DNA of 64,000 nt from Octopus sinensis. Taxonomy: Eukaryota. The position numbers and the translations under genes were made by a program. This document shows positions 760 through 47,909 of the stretch, piece by piece. The stretch spans positions 20,460,001 to 20,524,000 of the forward strand of contig NC_043018.1 of NCBI RefSeq assembly GCF_006345805.1. The letters are read 5' to 3'. The number at the start of each line of letters is the position of its first letter. The first letter of the stretch is position 1. The notes beneath the pieces are model-generated. The model did not search any database and was not told where the DNA came from. It saw only the letters and a list, made by a program, of their open reading frames with translations.

Positions 760-940
760 TATCTATCTATCTATCCGCTCAGTCGAAGTCGACTCTCGGT
801 CACTCGTTGGATCAGTGTCTTCCAGTCAGTTCTATCCTGAGCCACTTCTTTCAGATTGGCTATGTCCATTCGGGTATCCCTCTTGATGGTGTCAAGCCAG
901 CGGGTTCTTGGTCGGCCTCTTCCTCTCTTGCCACTGACCA
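760..940 (-). mobile_element. RTE/BovB-clade LINE 3' end (5'-truncated) with (GATA)n tail
   Basis: Minus-strand translation VSGKRGRGRPRTRWLDTIKRDTRMDIANLKEVAQDRTDWKTLIQRVTESRLRLSG* matches the typical RTE-BovB ORF C-terminus (GKRxRGRPRxRW...AxDRxxW); a short tandem tail follows the stop. Confidence 0.9.
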
Positions 941-2520: not shown

Positions 2521-4074
2521 ACTATATATATATATGTGTGTGTGTATGTTTGTGTGTCTGTGTTTGTCCCCCTAGCATTGCTTGACAACCAATGCTGGTG
2601 TGTTTACGTCCCCGTCACTTAGCGGTTCGGCAAAAGAGACCGATAGAATAAGTACTGGGCTTACAAAGAATAAGTCCCGGGGTCGATTTGCTCGACTAAA
2701 GGCGGTGCTCCGGCATGGCCGCAGTCAAATAACTGAAACAAGTAAAAGAGAGTATATATATGATGTGTTTCTTTCAGTTTCTGTCTACCAAATCCACTCA
2801 CAAGGCTTTGGTCAGCCAGAGGCTATAGTAAAATATACTTGTCCAAGGTGCCATGCAGTGGGACTGAACCTGGAACCATGTAGTTTGGAAGCAAGCTTCT
2901 TACCACACAGCCACGCCTATGATGATGATGATGATTTTTCAATATTTTTCAAGTAAACAAAGAAGAAGTGCCTGTTTACACCAAAATAAACAAGTAGCAA
3001 GCAGGAATATTTGTGTCCTTCAAGAGTGCTACGGTGCCATAAACTCTAACATAGAATGAATGAGTGTGTATGTGTGTGTGTGTGTGTGTATTTCTGGTTG
3101 TAAGTGAAACCGCATAGAAGAAGGTATTCCAAAACACAAAATCTCTAAACAGTGTCAAGTGCCAAGAAAAATAACTGAACAGTCTGTTACAGAATGGAAT
3201 AACAGGAATGGCTAACGTGCACCATAACCATTAATTGTCATCGTTTTATCTTCCAGGTTTTTGTAAACCAGAGACTGAGCCATCAACCTGTAGCATGACA
3301 AACCAGGCTTAAAAAAAGTACTGGGGTTGATTCATTTGACTAAAAGACTCTACAAAGTGGTGCCCCAGCATGGCCACAGTCTAATGTCTGAAACCTGTAA
3401 AAGCCAGAACATGAATCGTTGGTAAAATTAAGAATTTAACAAACTAAGAAAGGCATGTTTTTACTAACCCTACACTAATGGAATCAAGTATCTTACAAAG
3501 GTTCCACACTCGGATATATATTTGGATTACAGCCACAACTAATCATGTCTAAAGAATGTTGGTTTGTCATGCTAAAGGTTGATGGCTCAGAGACTGATTC
3601 ATAATTATTCTAAAGGATAGCAACATCAATTGTTTCTGATTTAAGGACAAAGGCCAGAAACTTTGAGGGAAAGGGAAGGGACTGGTCAATATAACTGACC
3701 CCTGTACTAAACTGGTATTTTAATTGATTGACCCAGAAAGGATAAAAAGCAAGGCTGACATCAGCAGAGTTTGAACTCATGCCAAATTTGACCTTGCCTG
3801 TGCTGGTGCCATGTAAAAAGCACTCAGTCCACTCTGCAGGGTAGTTGGTGTTAGGAAGGGTACCCAGCCATAAAAATAAGAGACACAGAAGCCTGGCATA
3901 GTCTTCGACCTGCCCAGCTTCTGTCAAACCATCCAACCTGAAGGCGGACATTAAACAATGATGATGATGATGATGATGAATGTAAAGTGCTGGAATGAAT
4001 ACGGCAGAAATATTTTGTCTGACGCTGTCAGTATCCAACCAATTTGCTGCTGAAATAATAAAAATTCTCATTTT

Positions 4075-9240: not shown

Positions 9241-9570
9241 TGCCAGTACCGCATCGACTGGCCTCCGTGCTGTGGGCACGTAACAAACACCATCCGATCG
9301 TGGCCGTTCGCCAGCCTCATCTGGCACCTGTGTCGGTGGCACATAAAAACACCATCCGAGCGTGGCCGTCTGCCAGCCTCGTCTGGCACTGTGTTGGTGG
9401 CACATAAAAGCACCCACTACACTCTCGGAGTGGTTGGCGTTAGGAAGGGCATCCAGCTGTAGAAACACTGCCAGATCTGACTGACCTGGTGCAGCCTTCG
9501 GGCTCCTCAGACCCCAGTTGAACCGTCCAACCCATGCTAGCATGGAAAGCGGACGTTAAATGATGATGAT
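9241..9570 (+). mobile_element. Retroposon family C (modular 5' array, GGCGTTAGGAAGGGCATCCAGCTG domain, CCATGCTAGCATGG hairpin, (GAT)n tail)
   Basis: More than 12 copies in the window; conserved 3' end ..GGACGTTAAATGATGATG; central motif resembles the V-SINE/DANA GGAAGGGCATCC domain. Confidence 0.88.
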
Positions 9571-10227
9571 ATATACATACATATATATACATACATACAT
9601 ATATATACATATACATATATATATATAAATATAGAGAGAGAGAGAGATACATATCTTTGAGATAGGTAAAAGAAAGGGAGAGGAAGATGCCATGGCTACA
9701 CAAACTAAGCTAGCAGTTTCAATGTAGAAGTTAATCCTGTTTGTTGTAGCAGAGACAAACAACAGCAACATGCATACGGCTCACAAACAGACGTTGCCCC
9801 TTTTTCCTTTCTTTGTCAACCAAATTGCTAGTTTGCTAGCCATCATCCAAATTGTCATCACGTTACATCTATTTTCCGCTCTGAGTCAAAGAAGCTGACA
9901 GATTGAAGAACCAAGTCTTGCTCCAATACCTAACATCTTCCATGCTTGATGCCCTTCCTAACACCAGCCAACTTACAGAGTTATACTGGAAGCATTTTTT
10001 CCAAAGCACCAGCACTATAGAGGTTGCCTTGTCCTCACAGACCTGTTGCTACTGCTCAGTTCAATTTGCAAACTATTTACAGAATGTAGTGAATGCTTTT
10101 TCCATGGAACTAGCACTTGTGGGGTCACCTTGTAACTTGCAAAGCAAAAGACAGCCCCACCCATTCTGTCACAACTCAAAGAGAAGAAGTTAATTACAAA
10201 AGTACATAATTATTATAAATAAAGCAA

Positions 10228-14539: not shown

Positions 14540-14945
14540 ATCATCATCATCATTTAACGTCCGTTTTCCGCGCTAGCACAGGTTGGACGGTTCGACTGGG
14601 GTCTGGGAAGCCAGGGGCTGCACCAGGCTCCAGTCTGATCTGGCAGTGTTTCTACAGTTGGATGCCCTTCCTAACGCCAACCACTCCACGAGTGTAGTGG
14701 GTGCTTTTTACGTGCCACCTGCACAGGTGCCAGGGGAGTCCGGCATCGGCCACGATCGGTTGGTGCTTTTAACGTGCCACCGGCACAGAAGCCAGCCAAG
14801 GCGGTGCTGGCATCGGCCACGTTCAGATGGTGCTTTTTATGTGCCACCGGCACTAGAAAATATCTTCCCAAGGCACCACACAGTGGCATTGAACCTGAAA
14901 CCATACAATTGCAAAGTAAGCTTCTTAACCACCCAGCTATGCCCT
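14540..14945 (-). mobile_element. Family C retroposon joined to a family A-like tRNA head
   Basis: Family C body 14540-14853, then A-type head 14853-14945; same junction at 21405-21600. Confidence 0.8.
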
Positions 14946-15452: not shown

Positions 15453-16347
15453 ATGTTTAAATTTCACAGCTGAAATAAAAATTCTCCCAATGAGCTTTAT
15501 CCATTTCCTTTTTCTCTGTTCTTTTTTCTGTCATGCAAATTACATGGCATCCTCACTAGTGCTGGTGCCATGTAAAAAGCACCACCTGGTTGACATTAGG
15601 AGCATCCAGCTATAGAAACTATACCAAAACAGACACTGGAGCTAGACACAGCCCTGCAGCCCGTTGGTTCTCTGTTGAACCATCCTACCAATATCTAAAA
15701 TAGTACCATCTGCTGCATGCAGACATTCATAACCATTCTAATTTTGTACCAAAGACATAGCTTCATTCTAATTAGCATGGAAAGCGGACATATGATGATG
15801 ATGATGATAATGAAGTAAAACTTCTCATACTGCTGTTCTTGATGTTGATGCTGTTGTTGTTCTTGTTGTTGTCGATGAAGTTTAAACCTCACTGTCAGAA
15901 CTAGGCCAATCAACAATTTTCAAGTTTTCCTGACAAAACGTTATCATTACCCCACAGAGTTGAAAAACCATGTCAGTAACAAAATAAAATAGTTTTTAAA
16001 TATTTGTCAGTTTGTGGTTTAATATTTATCTTTGGGTCACAACAAACATTAAGAATGAGAGATGAGTTGACATGATAGACGAGGACAGTGCTAGCATTCC
16101 TGTACAAATAGAGTCCGTATACCATCAACAAACTTTGCTCTCAATGAATTCCAGATGTGAAAAAAAAATATGTGAAATTAAGGAATTTCAAAATTCGTTA
16201 TATGTAGGAAATAGAATTTATTTTAAGCAAAAGAAATTAAATCTTGCTTCTTTCTTTTTTTTTTTTGTTTTAGCCTACTTTAACATTACATCATCATTTT
16301 CATTTTAATGTCCAATTTTATGAGCCTGCAGGAATGAAATAAAATTC

Positions 16348-17586: not shown

Positions 17587-19042
17587 TATGCTCCCATGCA
17601 CAAGAAAGAGGAAGATATTTTAATGTGGAACTCTTGTCTTGGAGAGAAAAGTTTCTCCTTATAGACTTCAACATGAAAACTGTATTAGGAGGAGTTTGGA
17701 TCAAAAGACAAAGAACCCTGCAGTAAATGTCTTCCACATTCCAGTGTTACATATAATTATACACAACATTATTCTGACCATCACTGCTTTGTGTGAAGAT
17801 TATAAATTATGATATTATTGTTATCATCATTTCATGTTATAATCTTAATTTCATCATCATCATCATTGTTTAAAGGTTACCTTCCATGCTGGCATGGGTG
17901 GAATGGTTTGACAGGAAATGGCCGGGCAGAAGCCTGCACCAGACTTCTGTGACTGTTTTAGCAGGATTTTTATAGCGGGATACCCTTCCTAACACCAACC
18001 ACTCAGCAGAGTGGACTTTGTGTTTTTTACATAGCACAAACGCAGGCAAGGTCAGTTTTGGCGGCAAGGTTTTTATAGCTGGATGCCCTTCCAAATGCCA
18101 ACCACTCAGCAGAATGGACTTTGGTTGGCATTTTCCAAATGCCAACCAACTTTGTTTTTCATCCTTCGAAGGTCAATAAGATACATGCCTGATAAGCATT
18201 GAGTTTGATGTAACTGACTGACCCCCCAAGCCCTGAAAATGCTGGACCTTGAGTCAAAACATGAAACCAATCATCAAATTTCATGATAAGGTGGCAAACT
18301 TGCAGAATCGTTAGCACACCCAGCAAAATGCTTAGCAACATTTCATCTGCCTTTACATTCTGAGTTCAAATTCTGCCAAAGTTGACTTTGTTTTTTTGTC
18401 CCTCCGGGGTTGATAAAATAAGTACCAGTTGAGCACTGGGGAAAATGTAATAGACTTACCTCCACTTCCTCAAAAATACTGACCTTGTGCCAAAATGTGA
18501 ATCAATATTTAATTTATTTTATGATATTATAAACCATAAACCATATTATATTATAAATTGCCTAATTTATATCAAATTATTGTTTGCATTTTATGACTTT
18601 AAAACATTATTTTTAATGAGAAATTTTACAGAAGCTGTTGGGACAATTTCACATTCAAATGCTGAAAAAAGCAGCAAAATCTCCCTAAAATCATCATCAT
18701 CTTTTAACATCTGCTTTCCATGCTAGCATGGGTTGGACGGTTCAACCGGCGTCTGGGAAGCCAGAAGGCTGCACCAGGCCCAGTTTGATCTGGCAATGTT
18801 TCTACGGCTGGATGCCCTTCCTAATGCCAACCACTCCATGAGTGTAGTGGGTGCTTTTTACATGCCAGACGAGGCTAGCAAATAAAGGGCCACGATCAGA
18901 TGGTGCTTTTTACGTGCCACCGGCATGGATAAAATAGAAAGCAACAGTAAAAAAGGTAGTTGTAGGTGCACTATTAACGAAACAAGGATGGGATGGCCAT
19001 GGTTGGAATACCTTTGATCACAGGTCTACTTCCAATCATTGG

Positions 19043-21001: not shown

Positions 21002-21842
21002 GTGGTTATTCCTAATGGAATTAGGAGCTGCTCTAATTACTTGGGCAGTAACTACACAAAAATATCTCTTAAATGTAAAACCTGCTTTTTTTGTTTATGT
21101 TTTATTTTATTTATTTTTCTCTGTAAGATGAGAAAGAACAGACTTGGATTGGTTAAAAGATTCAACCATTTCAAAGGAGCCAGCAGTTTTGCAGTTGAAG
21201 AGTTAAAATGTTTATTTAATTATCTTCCACTTTGGCATTAAAGTTGCTATTCTGGGTGGAAATGATGCTTTACTCTCCGAAAGACAAACTTAGTCGAAAT
21301 TCTATCTCGATTTGAAGCTTGTTTTGCCAGCACTCGAAAGCGATTATAACCCAGTAGCTTGTACCATGCTTTCACTAAATGTTTTATTGCCTGTGTTGTC
21401 TTGACCTTTCAGGTTCAATGCCACTGTGTGACACCTTGGGAAGATATTTTCTAGTGCCGGTGGCACATAAAAAGCACCATCCGAACATGGCTGATGCCAG
21501 CGCCGCCTTGGCTGGCTTCCGTGCCAGTGGCACGTTAAAAGCACCAACCGATCGTGGCCGATGCCGGACTCCCCTGGCACGTAAAAAGCACCCACTACAT
21601 TGCCTTGACCTAAAGGAGAGAGAGAGAGAATACTAGCAATATGATGGTATTCATTTTAGGCCCAAAATGAAGTGCCTTGCTCAAAAGCACAATGCACTGT
21701 CATATTCAGGGACCAAACCCTCAATACTATCACCATGAGTTTCACATCTCACCATAAGGTTACATACTGTCTACATTTATTGATTGGTCTTCGTTAATTT
21801 AGGGCTTACTTTTCATTTAAATATCTGTTCCATTAATTGTAG

Positions 21843-22775: not shown

Positions 22776-23323
22776 TACAATGCAAAGTTCCATACAGAAA
22801 GAAAAAAAAAATGAGAATGGTCTTTACTTTGGTAACAAGACTTTCAGAACCACAAAAATGCTCATCTGTACAATAGTGTATGGATACTTAATAACCCTAA
22901 ACGGAAACCAAATCAGCAGTGACAATAATGTTACCTGTAAATTAATTTACTGATTAACTTGGCAATGTTATGAACGATACAATTTCCTGGATATGATTCA
23001 TTCAGTTAAACCACTTCGTCACTCATTCCACAAAAGAAAAGTTTCTAGAACACTAGATTGGTATTCCACTAAGCGTCATGAATGAATGAGCCATTCTCTT
23101 TTACTCTTTTACTTGTTTCAGTCATTTGACTGTGGCCATGCAGGAGCACTGCCTTTAGTCAAGCAAATCGACCCCAGGACTTTTTCTTTTTGTAAGCCTA
23201 GTACTTATTCTATTGGTGTCTTTTGCTGAACCACTAAGTTATGGGTATGTAAACACACTAGCATCGTTTGTCAAACAATGTTGGGGGGGACAAACACAGA
23301 CACACAAATATATACACACACAC

Positions 23324-24020
23324 ATCATCATCATTTAACGTCCGTTCTCCATGCTAGCATGGGTTGGACGGTTCGACCAGGTATCTGGGAAGCCAGATGG
23401 CTGCACCAGGCTCCAGTCTTATCTGGCAGTGTTTCTACAGCTGGATGCCCTTCCTAACGCCAACCACTCTGTGAGTGTAGTGGGTACTTTTTACGTGCCA
23501 CCTGCACAGGTGCCAGGCGAGGCTGGTAATGGCCACGATCGGATTGGTGCTTTTTACGTGCCACCGGCACGGAAGCCAGTCAAGGCGGCACTGGCATCGG
23601 CCACGATTCGGATGGTGCTTTTTACATGCCACCGGCATGGAAGCCAGTCAAGGCAGCGCTGGCATTGGCCACAATTCGGATAGTGCTTTTTACATGCCAC
23701 CGGCATGGAAGCCAGTCAAGGCGGCGCTGGCATTGGCCACGATTCGGATAGTGCTTTTTACGTGCCACCGGCACGGAAGCCAGTCTAGGCAGCGCTGCAT
23801 CAGCCACGTTCAGATGGTACTTTTTACGTGCCACCTGCTCCGGGTTCACAACTGCAGTTTCCATTGATTTTGATGTCGGTGTACTTGACTCAATGGATCT
23901 CCTCAAGCACAGGGTCGAAATGGTGTTTCTTCACTTGCCACCAGCACAGGAGTCAGTCCAGCGGTCCTGGCAACTGCCGGGTGCCAGTCATAGGATTGGT
24001 TCAATTTCGATTCCGATTTC
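23324..24020 (-). mobile_element. Family C retroposon with the longest 5' module array (about 7 modules), inserted in a family A microsatellite
   Basis: GTGCTTTTTAC(A/G)TGCCACC recurs every about 55-67 bp from 23480 to 23950. Confidence 0.9.
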
Positions 24021-29152: not shown

Positions 29153-30044
29153 CAGGGGTTCTCAACCAGAGTTCACACGGTCCTGGAGGGTCCATATGTT
29201 TTTTTTTGGGGGGGGGGGCACGCAATAATATTGCAAATTGAAGAAAAAAATCAAAATCAAAATCGATCAACATCAATGGAAATTGCAGCTGTGATACCAG
29301 TGCCGGTGGCACGTAAGAGAACCATCCGAATGTGGCCGTTGCCAGCGCCGCCCCGACTGGCCTCCGTGCCGGTGGCACGTAAAAAGCACCATCCGATTGT
29401 GGCCGTTGCCAGCCTCATCTGGCACCTGTGCAGGTGGCACGTAAAAAGCACCCACTACACTCACGGAGTGGTTGGCATTAGGAAAGGCATCCAGCTGTAG
29501 AAACACTGCCAGATCAGACTGGGCCTGGCGCAGCCTTCTGGCTTCCCAGACCCTGGTTGAACCGTCCAACCCATGCTAGTATGGAAAACGGACGTTAAAC
29601 GATGATGATGATGATGAAGATTCACCGTAGCATTTTAAGGGACCCTGAAACAATTTTGCTCTAGATGTATGTATTAGTATGTATTGCAAGACACAGGTTT
29701 CTTTCTCTAACATTTTACATAGATCGACCTACACAAGGGAGTGTGCGAAAAACAAAATAGGGATTTCGAAAGACATTTCTATAAAACTAGTTTACAAACA
29801 TCAAGTGGCTTTAGGGATCCACCAGAATAAAATAGTAATCAAAGGGGTCTACAGATAAAAAAAACGGTCAAGAACCATGTTTTACTTAGTTCAGCCTACA
29901 CAAGGGAGCATGTGAGAAACAAAATAGGGATTTTGAAAGAAGTTTCTTTAAGACTAATTTTTAAAAATTGAATGGCTAAGAGGGTTCACAAGAATAAAAC
30001 ATTAATCAAGGGGTTCATAGGTAAAGAATGGTTGGGAACCCCTG
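29153..30044. mobile_element. hAT-like MITE containing a family C insertion (29250-29616) and an internal duplication
   Basis: TIRs CAGGGGTTCTCAACC / GGTTGGGAACCCCTG; 8-bp flanks ATCAAAAC / ATTTAAAC. Confidence 0.72.
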
Positions 30045-32997: not shown

Positions 32998-33485
32998 TCA
33001 TCATCATCGTTTAACGTCCGTTTTCCATGCTAGCATTGGTTGGACGGTTTTGACTGAGGACTGGCAAACCAGATGGCCGCACCAGGCTCCAGTCTTGATC
33101 TGGCAGAGTTTCTACCGCTGGATGCCCTTCCTAACGCCAACCACTCCAAGAGTGTAGTGGGTGCTTTTTACGTACCACCTGCACGGGGGCCAGTCAAGCG
33201 GTACTGGCAATATCTTCGCTTGAATCTTTTTACACGTGCCAGTGAAGTGACGTTGGTAACGATCACGCTCGAATGGTGCCCTTTTACGTGCCACAGGTAC
33301 AGAAGCCAGTTGGCTGCTCTGGTAACGATCACAACGATCACGCTCGGATGGTGTTCTTGGCACCCTACTAGCACAGGCATAAGTGCCAGTAAGGTGACGC
33401 TGGTAATGATCATACTTGAATAGCCTCTCTGTCAATGATCACACTCATATGGTGCTCTTTGCACACCGCTAGCACAGATGCCAGC
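32998..33485 (-). mobile_element. Family C retroposon, divergent module set
   Basis: Conserved body; modules carry GGTAACGATCACGCTCG variants. Confidence 0.85.
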
Positions 33486-33922
33486 GGATATATATATATT
33501 TATATATATATATATATGTGTGTGTGGTATGTTTACATCCCCCATAACTTAGCAGTTTGGCAAAAGTGACCGATAGGATAAATACTAGGCTTATAAAGAA
33601 TATGTCCTAGGGTCGATTTGTTCAACTAAAGGCAGTGCTCCAGCATGACCACAGTCAAATGACTGAAACAAGTAAAAGAAAAGAATAAAGATCAGAATAT
33701 ATATATATATATTAGTAGGCAATATAATTCCAAAACTTAAAGGGAAAAAATTAAATTTAACAATTTAAAATCAAATTTCACAATATATAATATTGTACTT
33801 TATTGATTTTTAAAATAAGGTTTTTTTTATAGTATATGTTTTCTATATGGTGTGAATAACATCTTTTTTATTGAATTGTTTAATAGAGGTTTTTCTCTAA
33901 ATTATATACATATAATACATAT

Positions 33923-35458: not shown

Positions 35459-36086
35459 TCATTTATTGCCAAACTAGCAAACTAGCATGGCAGCCCAGAG
35501 AAATAAGACGAATGCTGCTGTTGATTAGCTCCAAAAGGCTATTGCCTCTAGCTAGCTATGTGACGCACGAACCTGCGTCCATAAACCTTTGCTGCTGTAT
35601 CTCTCCTTCAGAGAGAAATTAGAAATTATAACATTTCTATTTATATATATACATACACACGAGTGCATGTGCACATGTGCACACACATACACACACACAC
35701 ACATGCACACATATGTATATATATCAACACCCACACATATACAGCCCACTTTCTGTTCTGGTTTGAACCCATTATCATTCAATGGTGCTACTGCTATCTT
35801 TCAAGAAAGCATGAATGAATTACAACAGCAGCAGTAGTAGTAGTAGTAGCACCACCACTCAGCTGAACCAGTCTTGTGACTAGTTTTTGCTGGTTACATT
35901 CTGACTTCAATAGTACTGGTGCCCTGTCAAAAAGAGAAACAACAAAAAAAAAACAAAAACCCCACTTAATACACTCTGTATAGTAGTTAGCATTAGGCAG
36001 GGCATCCAGCCATAGAAACCATGGCAAAGCAGACACTGGAGCCTAGCACCTTTCTCCAACCTAATTGGGGGCTGTCAAACCATCTG

Positions 36087-36788
36087 ACCCATACCTATTT
36101 CTTTATTACCCACAAGGGGCTAAACACAGAGAGGACAAACAAGGACAGACATAAGTTATTAAGTCGATTACATCGACCCCCAGTGCGTAACTGGTACTTA
36201 ATTTATTGACCCCGAAAGGATGAAAGGCAAAGTCGACCTCGGCGGAATTTGAACTCAGAACGTAACGGCAGACGAAATACGGCTATGCATTTCGCCCGGC
36301 GTGCTAACGTTTCTGCCGACCCATACCTATTTCTTTATTACCCACAAGGGGCTAAACACAGAGAGGACAAACAAGGACAGACATAAGTTATTAAGTCGAT
36401 TACATCGACCCCAGTGCGTAACTGGTACTTAATTTATCGGCCCCGAAAGGACGAAAGGCAAAGTCGACCTCGGCGGAATTTGAACTCAGAACGTAATGGC
36501 AGACGAAATACGGCTACGCATTTCGCCCGGTGTGCTAACGTTTCTGCCGACCCATACCTATTTCTTTATTACCCACAAGGGGCTAAACACAGAGGGGACA
36601 AACAAGGACAGACATAAGTTATTAAGTCGATTACATCGACCCCAGTGCGTAACTGGTACTTAATTTATCGACCCCGAAAGGATGAAAAGCAAAGTTGACC
36701 TCGGCGGAATTTGAACTCATAACGTAACGGCAGACGAAATACGGCTACGCATTTCGCCCGGCGTGCTAACGTTTCTGCCGACCCATAC
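36087..36788 (-). mobile_element. Tandem triplet of SINE family B (about 231-bp unit)
   Basis: GACCCATAC at 36087, 36318, 36549 and 36780 separates three near-identical units. Confidence 0.93.
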
Positions 36789-39234
36789 CAGCATGGAAGA
36801 CAGATGTATGATGATGATGATGTATTTCCTGAGTAATGATTAGAAAAAAAATTTATTATTTTTTTTTTTTTAAATAGATAGTTTTACTGCAACCATAAAG
36901 AACAGGAAGAAAAGAAAAAAGAAACATGTAACGTTATATAGCAATTCAAACCTTGCAACTGGCGCCAACAGTCCTGAAATACTTCTGTCACCTGGCACTA
37001 CAGTCTAATTAATGGGGATATATTATTAATGAAATAAAGTAACAAACAAAATAAACGTAACAACAACTGTCCCAGAATTGATTCCGTGTCAGGAGTAGTT
37101 TTGAGATTTACTGCTGTAACGCTGGAGATTGATACTTTGTTTGAATCATCAGTCGTGTTTAAACAAGAATTTGGATTCTCAATTGTACTTTTGGAAACCA
37201 GTTACCCTCTCGTGGCTATATTCCTATGCCTGCGTGGAGTCAAGAGATGGGAACTTCTCAGCTGGAGAGACATGTACCCAAGGGAATGAATGAATGAACA
37301 CAAGCACCATAATAATAAGGCTTTCAAACTATGGCACAGGGCCAACAGTTTTTGAGGGGAGGGGGAAGTCCATTACATCAACCCCCAGTACTAGACTGGT
37401 ATTTGTTTTATCAATTCCAAAAGGATGAAAGGCAGAGTCAACCTTGACGGAGTTTCGGATGCTTTACATCCAATCATTATTCTTCATTTAGGGATAGCAG
37501 TAAACGCAATAGCACAGGGCTTAGTAAATTGTTGTGGCATCTTAAAGACAAGAATAAGGATTTTAAGTTAGATTGGTTCATCCTGTCCATCTCTTTCCCT
37601 TATGACAAGGGCAAAGGATTCTGTAACATTTGCAACTCTGAACTCTTCCATATTCTCTTCTCTAAGAATCACCTTGTTAACACACTTATTGAGTGATCTT
37701 ACAAATGGAAAACTGGCAGAAACATACCTTTAGCTCATATAAGTGATTTATACCAGTCTGTATAGTTTGAACATTTAGTTCACCTTGCACTTTACTTCAA
37801 TAGAGAAATCTACTTCCAAGCCTTTGAACATTTTTTCAGCCAACATATCCCTCTATATTTCTCCATTTCTCCTTATTATTTCTTTACCCCTTCTCTTTCT
37901 ATGATCTACTGTTGACGTCAGATCTACTAATGGTTATTTTTTTAAATACTTAATAGCGTTCTGTTTATCATCTATGCAGTAATCAAAATTGTTATAATGT
38001 CTTGTTGTTGAGATGAGTTCCCTTTCTTTCCTGATGAGAAGATTACATTATTTTACATTGTTTATTCTTTTGGAATAAAACCAATGTTGTCTTCAAAACA
38101 TATGTCGAAAGTAAAAGAATTTGAATAACATCTGCGTTCAACTCCATTTATTTACTTATATATAATATATATATATTTTTTCTCAACATATGGCCCTTAA
38201 ACACCCTTCCAGCAGCCCCTGACAGTCTTCCCTCTATATATAATATAATAATTTTTTCCTTGATTAACAGGAGTCTTACTTTTTTGGTGCAGCCCCATAA
38301 AAAAATTCAGGTTCCGAATCAACCCCGAATATTAAAAACTGAGAATCATTGGAATGGACTTTTCTAAAGGCACCACTGACACCAAAATATTGGTTTCTAA
38401 AATAGGCAACAGGCCAGGAATTTGACAGGCAAAAGAAAGTCGATTATGTGACAGTCCAGTACTTGACTGGTACTTTATTTTATCGATCATAAAAGGACGA
38501 AGGGGCAAAGTTCACCTTGGCAAGATTTGAAATCTGAATGTTAAAATGTCAGGCTGAATACCAAGAGGCACATTATCCAACATTCTTAACTTATAAGCAA
38601 TGAAATATCTATTTATTTGGTACAAGACCAAAACTATGGGGGTCAAGAGGACAGGTGACAGATTAGTTGATCATAACCCAAGTACGTAACTGGTACTTAT
38701 TTAATCCCAATAAAAAATTACCATCACAACAAAAATATTCTCATGTCAGAAGTCATCATTATAATTTGTTCTTAACAACAAAAACAAAATCTGACTGGCT
38801 TCACTATCATCTCAATAACTATTAATATCATTATTATTATTAGTATTATCATCATCACTGACAACAGACACCAACTGTTTACTATCATCATTTATTATCA
38901 TTTCAGTCAGTACTCTATATCATACATTGTAATCATCTCTGACACTTCGCAATAAGCTTTATCTCCTTCATCATCATTATCATCACAATTATAGCCATGA
39001 CTACCATCATCATCATCATCATCATTTATCATCATGACTAGAATTCTCATTACTATCATCGCTGTCATCATCACCACGATAATTGTCATCATTGACCACA
39101 AACCAATGTGTTTAGTGCATTGAAGCAGCCAGATACGACAAGGATACAAGAGTATTTTATGGGGATGGCACAGGATGGCTACAGCAAGGAAGAGGGGAGA
39201 GCGTCAGAATGGCAATGGGAAGAGCGACAATAAA

Positions 39235-39592
39235 TTAATGGGGACAGCAAGTGAAAGTTAATGGGGACAGCAAGTGAAAGTTAATGGGGACAGCTACTGA
39301 AAGTTAATGGGGACAGCAAGTGAAAGTTAATGGGGACAGCTACTGAAAGTTAATGGGGACAGCAAGTGAAAGTTAATGGGGACAGCAAGTGAAAGTTAAT
39401 GGGGACAGCAAGTGAAAGTTAATGGGGACAGCCACTGAAAGTTAATGGGAACAGCCACTGAAAGTTAATGGGAACAACCACTGAAAGTTAATGGGGACAG
39501 CCACTGAAAGTTAATGGGGACAGCAACTGAAAGTTAATGAGGACAGCCACTGAAAGTTAATGGGGACAGCCACTGAAAGTTAATGGGGACAG
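39235..39592. repeat. 23-bp minisatellite TTAATGGGGACAGC(A/C/T)A(G/C)TGAAAG, about 15 copies
   Basis: Direct reading; two degenerate units resume at about 39739-39786 after a family B fragment. Confidence 0.95.
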
Positions 39593-40491: not shown

Positions 40492-41767
40492 TATACATAG
40501 ACATACATAAGTACCTTATCTGAAGGCATAAAAAGCCATATTAAACACAGCCTAATTTTACAAGTGCTTATTCGAGAAAAAGGGGGCTTAGTGCATGTAA
40601 TATAGGCCAAACTTTGCCTATAGAACTTGGGTCGGTTTTGGAAACATTTTTGGTGAGGAAAGATGTGCATCTTTATGTCTTCAGATACCATAGTTTAGTT
40701 GATTGAAAAAACTGGAATAATCATCATGCAAACTGGTGGAGATCCTTTTACAATAATAATAATAGGAAGAAAAAAAAACAGTTACTTCACTTAGTCAATT
40801 AAAGTAGAAAAGACAAAAAAAATACTTCATACCTCTTAAGATGATAAGAGAAGAAATCTGATAACGAGACGCACTAATTAGTTTTAAAAAAAAAACCCAA
40901 AAAAAACTCTTACCTGACCTTTGACTTCTGTTATACGTAATCTATAAAAGTACATATAGAGAAGTGTGAAACAAACCGTCAGTGTTGCCTTAAAGGGTTA
41001 CCAGGTCGGGAATCGTCCCAAACAGAAGTGAAATATTAAATTGGGAAACTATTAGATCAGCTCCCTGACGTGCTTTGGTTGTTTGCTATTGCTTTGCTAT
41101 CGATGACATTATTAAATAAACAGACAGACATTATGCGCAAAATGACAAGAGAATGGTATTCTGAGAGACTAAATAATGTTTATCGAAGATTTGGGAAGCA
41201 AAGTTGATAAAAGCCGTAATCTTACATAATTACATCTTGTGAAACACTGCTTCGTGTCATCGACTTCTTGTTACGTTTGTGTTTTATTGGTTTTTGTGTT
41301 TTTGCCATGATCAATAGACCATACACACACACACACACAGCATCACCATTGTCATCATCATCATCGTCGTTTAACATCTGTTTTCCATAGTGTCAAGGGT
41401 TGGACAGCTTGGGCCAAAGAACTGCACCTAGCTTTGATGTCAGCTTTGGCATGGTTTCCTAATGCTAGCCACTAGTGCTGGTGCCTGTGTGGTCAGTGGC
41501 ACCAGCACTAGTGACCAAGTATCTTGCAAAACAAAACCCCTAAACTGGTAGGGAAGAGGGAGGAAGGTGGCTATATGCAAAGTGATGAGAAAGGAACAAC
41601 CAGCTTACAGAGTGTTCTGGGTGCTTTTTACCTGGCATCAACATCAGTGAGGTAACCAAGTAACATGCAAGAAAAAGACCCTTCAACTGGGGTGGGAGCA
41701 GTATCAAGGGAGAAAGGCTTTATGCAAGGTGAGGAGAGGTAGAAACAGAAACACATTTAGGCATAAA

Positions 41768-42960: not shown

Positions 42961-43580
42961 ATAAAAGTAAATTCCACCATTTTACCATTTCAGGTGCCAC
43001 ATAAAAAAAAAACAAAAAAACACTGCTGCTGGTGTGACATAAAAAGCATGCAGAACACTCTGTAAAGTGATTGGCATGTTAGGATAGGCATCTAGCAGTA
43101 GACACCACGCAAAAACAAACAACAGTGCCTAGTGTGGCCCCGCCAGTCTTACCAGCCCCTATTAAACTGTCCAACCCATGCCAGCATGGAAAACGGATAT
43201 ACTAAATGATGACAACAATGGTGATAGATGCATGTGTGGCGCAATGAAACTGAGACACAAAATCCACATCGTTTACAAGGAGTAATTAAACACCGAAGAA
43301 TTAGAGTTATGGTAAGATGGGGGGGGGGAGAATTTGGGTAACAGGAAGACCAGAGTTCATTTTTATTGAAAGTCATTTAACTCTCTTCGTAGCAACATGC
43401 CAGACACCGATCCTGGTTCTGTGATACACATTTCCTGCTTTGAAATAATCTAAATTAAATTTGCCATCAAAGTTTCACGTTAATTTATGTTCCAAACAAC
43501 GTTTTAATGGTAACGAAGTTATTTGGCTAAATTTTCAAAATTAATTGAAACAAAGGCAACGTATTTTAAAAGTGATGTGA

Positions 43581-43908: not shown

Positions 43909-44985
43909 CCATGGTAACAATAAAGTTACCTGACCCGATCATCATCATCATCGTTTAACGTCCGCCCTCCATGCTAGCATGGGTTGGACGGTTCAACTGG
44001 GGTCTGGGAAGCCAGAAGGCTGCGCCAAGCCCAGTCTGATCTGGCAGTGTTTCTACAGCTGGATGCCCTTCCTAACGCCAATGTACTGTCAAATATTTGT
44101 AAAGGGTCTACTACTCATTTTTTCCAACTTAGGAAATGATAAGATCGGTCTTTTTCAAGATAGAGCCCTATACCTAAGCAAACAAGGTATCTCAAGCTCA
44201 GAAGAGAACTCACAGAACTGAATCTCAGATACACGTTACTCTCTAACATTCATTTCCAACACTCTTTAATCTACCTCCCCCACCCTCTCTCTCTCTCTCT
44301 CTCCAGGTCACTATATTATGCTGCCCCTGTCTCTAAAGAGGCAATACATGGAACTCATTACTATCACCCTTTCTGTACTGCCTGTCATCACTCACTCTTC
44401 CCTGAACTGTGTGCTATTCATCCTTTCGGATATTAAACTTCAGCCACTTCTGCGATTAGTGTTTTGTCTTTTGCAATACAAGGCAGCCTCTGTACTGCTG
44501 GTGCCATGATAAAATGCACTCGGTACACACTGTAAATCAGTCGGTAACAATAAGGGCCACTTGCAATAGAAACCAAGCCCCAGAAGTCACATCACAAAGT
44601 GTATTGGGTGCTTTTTTATGTGGCACCAGCAGATACCTCAGCTGAGTGGTGGGGAAATAGTATCAAGGGAGGCGGCTTTGTGCCAGCTGATGAGGGGTCA
44701 GAGTATGACAGAGGGAGAGAAACAGGTGTGTTGCTGTAAAAGAAATGCATGGCTACAGCAGAGACAGTGTGTGAGCAAGATGTGATCCCCTGGCACATTG
44801 AGGAGGGTGGTAACTTCAAATAAAAACTGAGTCAAGCTATGACAACTCATCCAATCCATGCCAGCATGAGAAGGTGATATATGGTGATGAGGATGAGAAT
44901 GTGTGTAAGTGTGTACACACAAACACACACACAAACTCTCTCATAGATGCATACACACACACACATGCATACACACATCTATCTA

Positions 44986-47409: not shown

Positions 47410-47909
47410 TATGTGTGCATATATATACACATACAAGCATAATGCATATATGTAAATATGTGCATATATATATACATGCACACACACATATACACGCACA
47501 ATCATGTATATAAACATATGCACACACACACACGCATACATAAATATATACAAATGCATATATATATATATATATATATATACATACAAAGCTATATATC
47601 ATCATTGAACATCCGTTTTCCACAGTACTGTGTAGGACAGTTCAACAGGATTCGTCAAACCAGAGGACTGCATCAAACTCCAATGCCCGCTCTGGTGTGG
47701 TCTCCACGGTTGGGTGGTCTTCCTGATGCGAACCTCTCTACAGAGTGAGCCGGATGCTTTTATCATGGCACCCGCACTATTGAGGTCACCAAATATATTA
47801 CAAGGCAAGACCCCCATTCAGTCGAGTGTCAGTGTAGAATACATAAACACACACATACAACACGTGTACATATACACAGGTACAAACACACAGACAAAAA
47901 AACAGACGG

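Follow-up and report, generated by a model that had tools for sequence, protein, structure and literature searches.

A tandem array of predicted H-type pseudoknot modules in an RTE-derived bipartite element of Octopus sinensis

Introduction

The question raised by this locus is whether a run of short modules placed in front of an octopus retroelement segment encodes a repeated RNA structure, and what such a structure might do for the element that carries it. The locus lies in a 64,000-nucleotide stretch of the Octopus sinensis genome (contig NC_043018.1, positions 20,460,001 to 20,524,000; ‘the window’, numbered here from its first letter), in which copies of one repeat, termed ‘family C’, are preceded by different numbers of modules. 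The initial annotation read each module as a hairpin followed by a compact H-type pseudoknot (the ‘core’), and suggested that the array may grow at its 5' end.

Non-autonomous RTE elements with a ‘bipartite’ construction are already known, among them Bov-A, RTESINE1/2, WALLSI3 and RTE-N2_Lch (PMC5786205, in the portion available). The reason for the conservation of RTE 5'-UTR pieces and SINE central domains across phyla is treated as an open question in the accessible parts of two sources (PMC5786205 and PMC5804259). A fold of 26 nucleotides with natural compensatory variants would make one answer to that question directly testable; if the fold is not real, what is left is a common, unremarkable repeat of RTE origin that contains a minisatellite.

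Identity of the element

Family C is a segment of an RTE-clade non-LTR retroelement, in which an RTE 5'-UTR domain is joined to an RTE 3' tail. A motif located 3' of the last core has exact matches at no fewer than 121 metagenome loci and at 13 genome-contig loci, three of which (L128-L130) look like chance bacterial matches. At two loci (L010 and L108) the motif lies approximately 240 nt upstream of an endonuclease-type frame, which matches the Pfam model Exo_endo_phos with an E value of 1e-4, under the curated cut-off. The family C tail, in turn, aligns with the 3' end that follows a frame resembling an RT C-terminus in L065 (two short pieces of that locus gave no Pfam match). The motif-plus-tail unit is also found in L127 and L132, where the tails align with that of family C, and at L134 the motif is preceded by a tRNA-like head. 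Because the motif is found upstream of an endonuclease-type frame and the tail matches RTE 3' ends, the body of family C corresponds to the bipartite layout described in the available portion of PMC5786205. It shares with those elements an RTE 5'-UTR piece, an RTE 3' end, a short-repeat tail and the lack of an RNA-gene head; it differs in the addition, in front, of a tandem array of putatively structured modules of 63-68 nt. The word ‘pseudoknot’ is absent from PMC5786205.

Several neighbouring observations concern the same retroelement clade. Nine prokaryote genome records (L123-L127 and L131-L134) contain animal-type SINE/RTE sequence (a tRNA-like head in L131 and L134, the motif, and the tail), which is probably due to chimeric contig ends or contaminating DNA. 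At L016, L054, L010, L108 and 15 further loci, approximately 110 nt upstream of the motif, there is an RTE family whose 5' start (GGGTACTG) is sharp. It carries a hairpin, CGTC(G/T)G-AGAG-C(C/A)GACG, followed by TAAA and containing a G-C/T-A compensatory pair; this hairpin family accounts for 19 of 123 motif matches listed, and the members scanned gave no Rfam match. Within the window itself, a fragment of an RTE-like RT C-terminus (786-935, minus strand) ends at a (GATA)n repeat and has no link to family C.

Organization of the focal array

Read along the minus strand, the focal copy begins in AAATCG-like short repeats (at approximately 24,020) and finishes at 23,323 with a (TGA)n tail; its parts are listed in Table 1. 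Its seven cores, positioned by the first base of GGTG, lie at 23502, 23565, 23633, 23701, 23769, 23835 and 23942, separated by 63, 68, 68, 68, 66 and 107 nt; Tandem Repeats Finder (TRF) describes the array as 4.5 copies of a 68-nt period, with 90% matches. A tandem array is thus present as originally described, and lies on the minus strand, with two qualifications: the modules measure 63-68 nt rather than 55-67 nt, and the cores at 23835 and 23942 are incomplete. Stem 2 includes a G-U pair in four of the seven cores. The core of module 1 can be aligned without gaps with those of two related families, termed O and W and considered below.

Table 1. Features of family C and of its sister family O in the window
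Feature	Position	Strand
Focal family C copy: leader, 7 cores, RTE 5'-UTR motif, RTE 3' tail	23323..24020	-
5' start within AAATCG-like short repeats; the same repeat starts copies 20,224 and 29,470	23990..24020	-
Module 7, decayed: 4/5 stem-1 pairs, loop 3 of 8 nt	23922..23985	-
Second leader; 26/29 identity with copy 29,470	23842..23885	-
Core 6: without upstream hairpin, 3/5 stem-1 pairs	23816..23841	-
Module 5: 66 nt, hairpin short by one base; predicted pseudoknot 23775-23750	23750..23815	-
Module 4: 68 nt, CATGC/GCATG; predicted pseudoknot 23707-23682	23682..23749	-
Module 3: 68 nt, CATGC/GCATG; 65/68 identity to module 4	23614..23681	-
Module 2: 68 nt; GCCAG/CTGGC hairpin 23595-23575; predicted pseudoknot 23571-23546	23546..23613	-
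Module 1, of the last-module type: 63 nt, A in loop 1	23483..23545	-
CACTC/GAGTG hairpin, separating last core from RTE motif	23465..23482	-
Conserved RTE 5'-UTR motif (TTGGC..AGGAAGGGCATCC)	23432..23465	-
RTE-type 3' end (GTCCAAC, hairpin, GGACGTTAAA) and (TGA)n tail	23323..23371	-
Sister copy: 3 cores, candidate 6-nt target duplication TGAAGA	29245..29612	+
Sister copy with different, decayed module types; two with GGTG..CACC kept and stem 1 lost	33010..33490	-
Older sister family O, example: GGTGCCA core with an extra stem-2 pair and a shortened stem 1	3795..3975	+
Further family O copies	9929-10020, 15554-15625, 17960-18157, 35908-36025, 41569-41649	
Further family O copies	43021-43215, 44490-44630, 47694-47782	

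Two further features of the focal copy may be recorded here. The halves of one module (23,546-23,613) agree at 14 of 23 columns, which hints at an older unit of approximately 33 nt, and the RTE motif (23,432-23,465) can form a 6-bp helix, GGTTGG/CCAGC, that is kept in families C, O and W without any two-sided change.

Copies in the window and history of the array

The window holds 13 copies of family C, which carry from zero to seven modules each, in agreement with the variable module number first reported. A fuzzy search for the core returned 39 matches; removal of three that belong to another SINE and four that belong to the older sister family leaves 32, to which two decayed modules near 33,350-33,490 were added from a profile search. 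One copy (at 14,682) is inserted in a tRNA/CORE SINE (14,550-14,870), and a 208-column local duplicate of it, with a 15-nt deletion, lies 7 kb away on the opposite strand (21,406-21,600, with the family C copy at 21,459-21,600). A tRNA-headed subfamily of family C was considered and rejected: the tRNA-like head at 14,682 belongs to the host SINE, ARAGORN finds no tRNA, and a Pol III B-box is absent in each of the three copies scanned. The earlier statement that most copies are without a tRNA head is thereby upheld. A single 6-nt candidate target-site duplication was found among 12 copies, several of which lie within microsatellites.

The 5' boundaries of the 12 independent copies fall inside the array in eight cases, in AAATCG-like repeats in three, and in the body in one. 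Of the eight array-internal starts, four precede a stem 1 by 0-5 nt (post hoc P ~0.02), a placement that fits either a barrier to 5' decay or stalling of the RT at a hairpin. Within the focal array, modules 2-5 are identical to one another at 58-65 of 68 letters, and modules 3 and 4 have two CpG changes in common, while cores 6 and 7 reach only 34-46 of 68. In the focal copy, then, the array expanded from within, and its outer units are old. The proposed growth at the 5' end is contradicted by this pattern, since the modules closest to one another in sequence lie inside the array and those at its outer edge are decayed; together with the start positions, this internal similarity indicates that module number reflects truncation, subfamily and internal duplication. 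What has been called the ‘5' end’ of family C may be a truncation point instead of the true element start.

Sequencing contigs carry family C in bulk (152,649, 46,556 and 13,431 contigs in three runs), with a depth that declines toward the 5' side when placed on the sister copy at 29245..29612 as reference. Depths in run X16 are 1e2-6e3 for the leader and first module versus ~1e7, and the last core and body are abundant; such contig depths are not equal to copy number. Contig joints that step back by 49-58 nt suggest that other copies have additional modules. A raw-read run contributed 41 reads, all of DNA and without piles of ends, and run X10 was labelled as RNA by guess and cannot show transcription.

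Evidence for the pseudoknot within family C

The structure alignment comprises 22 of 34 modules, picked for a mostly complete upstream hairpin, and within that selection pairing is kept at 95% in the hairpin, 96% in stem 1 and 94% in stem 2, with hairpin loops that vary in length and sequence. RNAalifold, applied to these 22 modules, selects the hairpin and a 5-bp stem 1 instead of a 6-bp hairpin; because it does so, and because the loop-1 base may be A, C, T or G among cores, the 6-bp hairpin is not the conserved form.

The variants that were offered as evidence of covariation in stem 1 are present where they were described (CATGC/GCATG in the cores at 23633 and 23701, and TGTGT/GCACA in those at 9335, 9396 and 45167), and every one of them is a CpG transition. 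Covariation among family C modules is accordingly not proof of the fold, since all five two-sided changes in the 22 modules fall in two CpG pairs of stem 1 and none of the four pairs of stem 2 has changed on both sides. The covariation score of family C is matched by 23 of 500 shuffles. In the body of the element, CpG transitions occur at a rate of 13 of 110, versus 89 of 1543 for other changes; two independent CATGC/GCATG events were found against 0.36 expected, a borderline excess (P ~0.05), and the cores at 18921 and 40039 carry uncompensated single hits.

Geometry and energy give a mixed account. The strict pseudoknot geometry arises in seven of 2000 shuffles of a module, and any similar H-type geometry in 100 of 2000. 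For the standard core, energy estimates range from -7.1 to -10.4 kcal/mol, on either side of the plain hairpin (-8.6), and estimates for the last-module type favor the knot (-6.1 to -9.4 versus -4.9). Nested folding of 23543-23611 prefers another helix, of 8 bp, and modules fold no better than shuffles under nested models (z -1.05 to +0.5).

Evidence from related families

A comparison beyond family C is provided by two families, the older sister family O and family W, an element family from another source. Family O has a single GGTGCCA core, with motif and tail as in family C (one copy, at 17,960-18,157, has the motif twice); its junction base is C in nine of ten copies, one stem-1 pair is lost, and a fifth stem-2 pair is possible. 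Family W consists of L046, L065 and L081, the top three of 137 motif matches listed when ranked by ungapped identity to the core (16, 15 and 14 of 26, a small margin over the next best match at 13); the core is absent from the other 134 listed. In L065 it reads GAGA-T-GGTG-TCTC-GATAAAAA-TACC, with an 8-nt segment before TACC, and in family W as a whole its register is within 1-2 nt of that seen for the last core of family C. Two pairs of stem 1 are changed on both sides by transversion in family W (T-A to A-T and C-G to A-T), and pairing in stem 2 is kept through G-U; L081 has one stem-1 mismatch. Decay of CpG sites does not explain these two pairs.

The alignment of all three families gives a covariation score above all 500 shuffles, a result that nevertheless represents one lineage and one event. 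Over its 16 rows, stem 1 is paired at 81% and stem 2 at 97%, and RNAalifold selects stem 2. Stem 2 is supported by that selection and by the one-pair extension in family O, and against it stands the lack of any compensatory change in its four pairs, where only G-U changes and the extension are seen.

A loose pseudoknot scan was positive for 14 of 121 motif matches listed against a background of 27 of 373, so that only the register match of family W is informative (an earlier, stricter scan, positive for none of the 121 loci listed, misses family W and was too strict). The module pattern itself has no match in the metagenome and genome contigs, the module HMM finds nothing under E 2.8 at the 134 listed motif loci, and three patterns gave no match in viral contigs.

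Given a matching knot at nearly the same place in family W, the predicted fold looks conserved. The two crossing helices differ in the kind of support that they have, and we judge a compact H-type pseudoknot to be probably real. Of the original description, an array of modules with an H-type pseudoknot retains its standing through families W and O and the variable loop-1 base, and loses the argument from the variants that were first cited. The element is of a known kind; the pseudoknot is plausible and newly supported, short of proof.

Possible functions and alternative explanations

The overall explanation that we favor, at about an even chance, combines an RTE bipartite segment with an old pseudoknot that has been duplicated internally and has a role in cis. 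Family C would be copied by an RTE reverse transcriptase from its tail and usually shortened at its 5' side, as in established LINE biology; no autonomous partner of family C was found. The predicted knot (a stem 1 of 4-5 bp, a 1-nt loop, a stem 2 of 4 bp and an A-rich loop of 7-8 nt), situated approximately 20 nt upstream of the RTE motif, is probably an old part of the RTE 5'-UTR domain. In this lineage, as the focal copy shows, the core and the GCCAG/CTGGC hairpin were duplicated in tandem, mostly within the array, and outer modules decayed; extra modules would let shortened transcripts retain a structured 5' end.

The function of the predicted knot, whether protection of RNA or binding of the RT, we infer from other systems. 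R2 elements have a 3'-UTR pseudoknot that binds the R2 protein (PMC12222951) and an HDV-like stable fold at the 5' end that has been proposed to resist 5' decay (PMC11331408), both as described in the accessible parts of those sources. Both systems concern the RNA of non-LTR elements; R2, as far as those parts describe it, belongs to a different clade and has a different fold, in single copy. On the strength of that analogy, the most likely role for the pseudoknot is that of a non-catalytic cis element that would stabilize RNA or bind the RTE protein, with extra modules preserving structured 5' ends; we advance it tentatively. 

Rather doubtful at present is a broader form of the proposal, in which the 26-nt pseudoknot would be an undescribed functional RNA element that distant animals share in their RTE 5'-UTR domains, and perhaps also the stem-plus-A-run core that recurs in Nin-type SINE domains, and its serial array would protect or license shortened RNAs so that truncated elements stay mobile. 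Compared by eye, and in the portions available, the central domains of the Nin/Snail and HaSE SINEs resemble the core in a CGTG..GCACG stem, T(T)AAA and a downstream run ending in CC; theirs have longer loops, are present in single copy and follow a tRNA or 5S head. In openly accessible full-text literature the core motif has no match, and no paper on such an array or on an H-type pseudoknot of an RTE or SINE was found there. Compact frameshift pseudoknots of the luteovirus type have a 5-bp stem 1, a short stem 2 and an A-rich loop 3. Family C shares these stem sizes and the A-rich loop, unlike them without a slippery heptamer (none in the three copies scanned) or a reading frame across the array. 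Protein searches with the translated module frame gave nothing real, the two matches being unrelated repeat proteins.

A rival to which we assign slightly less than an even chance is that an autonomous RTE LINE carries the array in its long 3' UTR, and that family C is a collection of 5'-truncated LINE ends. The knots would then act near the 3' end (in RT binding or RNA stability) and there would be no ‘variable 5' end’; a real pseudoknot is compatible with either placement. In octopus this array would follow an RTE ORF, and the family C copies would then be truncated LINE 3' ends. The preponderance of starts inside the array or body (nine of 12), the lower contig depth toward the 5' side and the absence of a Pol III box all agree with such an origin, as do an octopus RTE LINE with a 3' UTR of ~600 nt that is mostly repeat (PMC9115989, in the part available) and the binding by R2Tg of a 3'-UTR pseudoknot to start TPRT (as reported in the same portion of PMC12222951). 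Against it, a six-frame motif scan found no RT-like frame upstream of any window copy, and three copies begin in the same AAATCG-like repeat, as would be expected of a true 5' end. Neither the sequence of the published RTE LINE nor its 3' repeat was found in the supplements searched (three PMC9115989 files excepted), and identity with that LINE is not established; as the supplement and protein searches gave no link, the LINE-end origin is retained as a rival.

Unlikely, by our estimate, is the view that only the last core matters at most, and that the extra modules arose neutrally, as in a minisatellite, from a GC-rich unit prone to hairpins, with the pseudoknot a chance pairing. The CpG decay shared by recent internal duplicates, the decay of outer modules, the near absence of leader and first module from run X16 and the 5% of shuffles with general H-type geometry would all be in keeping with it. 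They are opposed by stems that stay fixed across module types as loops change in length and sequence, and by the stem-1 compensation in family W.

The same compensation, and conservation that tracks RNA stems, make it improbable that the modules act as DNA, in the role of Pol II promoter monomers, a comparison invited by tandem GC-/CpG-rich units upstream of an RTE 5'-UTR motif and by the missing Pol III box. The monomer arrays at the 5' end of mouse L1 are likewise variable tandem units in a LINE-derived element; the units of family C are shorter, belong to the RTE clade and show constraint on RNA stems, and any promoter role for them is putative.

Finally, that every module is a small ribozyme that cleaves itself, of the sort present in other RTE 5' ends, is very improbable: twister variants in the 5' UTR of the RTE Perere-3 (PMC8501958), predicted RTE ribozymes (PMC5786205), both within the available portions, and the four internal starts just before a stem 1 speak for it, against which no Rfam ribozyme matches, the hammerhead core, twister loop and HDV-like descriptor are absent in all three copies, and starts spread over 0 to 5 nt with no single site. 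More generally, no match in the window reaches the Rfam gathering score, and those in the element, as well as those close to the motif at 27 loci, are at chance level. Two specific candidates were also set aside: an HDV-like fold in which the hairpin loop pairs with the core, which is the MFE in one module and has no full descriptor match, and the CACTC/GAGTG hairpin as a twister remnant, which neither Rfam nor the core-motif scan supports.

Two other tandem repeats in the window deserve mention in their own right. A 231-nt unit of SINE-like sequence is repeated three times at 36,086-36,789 (96% matches), and a 23-nt minisatellite of 15.6 copies (39,235-39,592) adjoins a family C tail.
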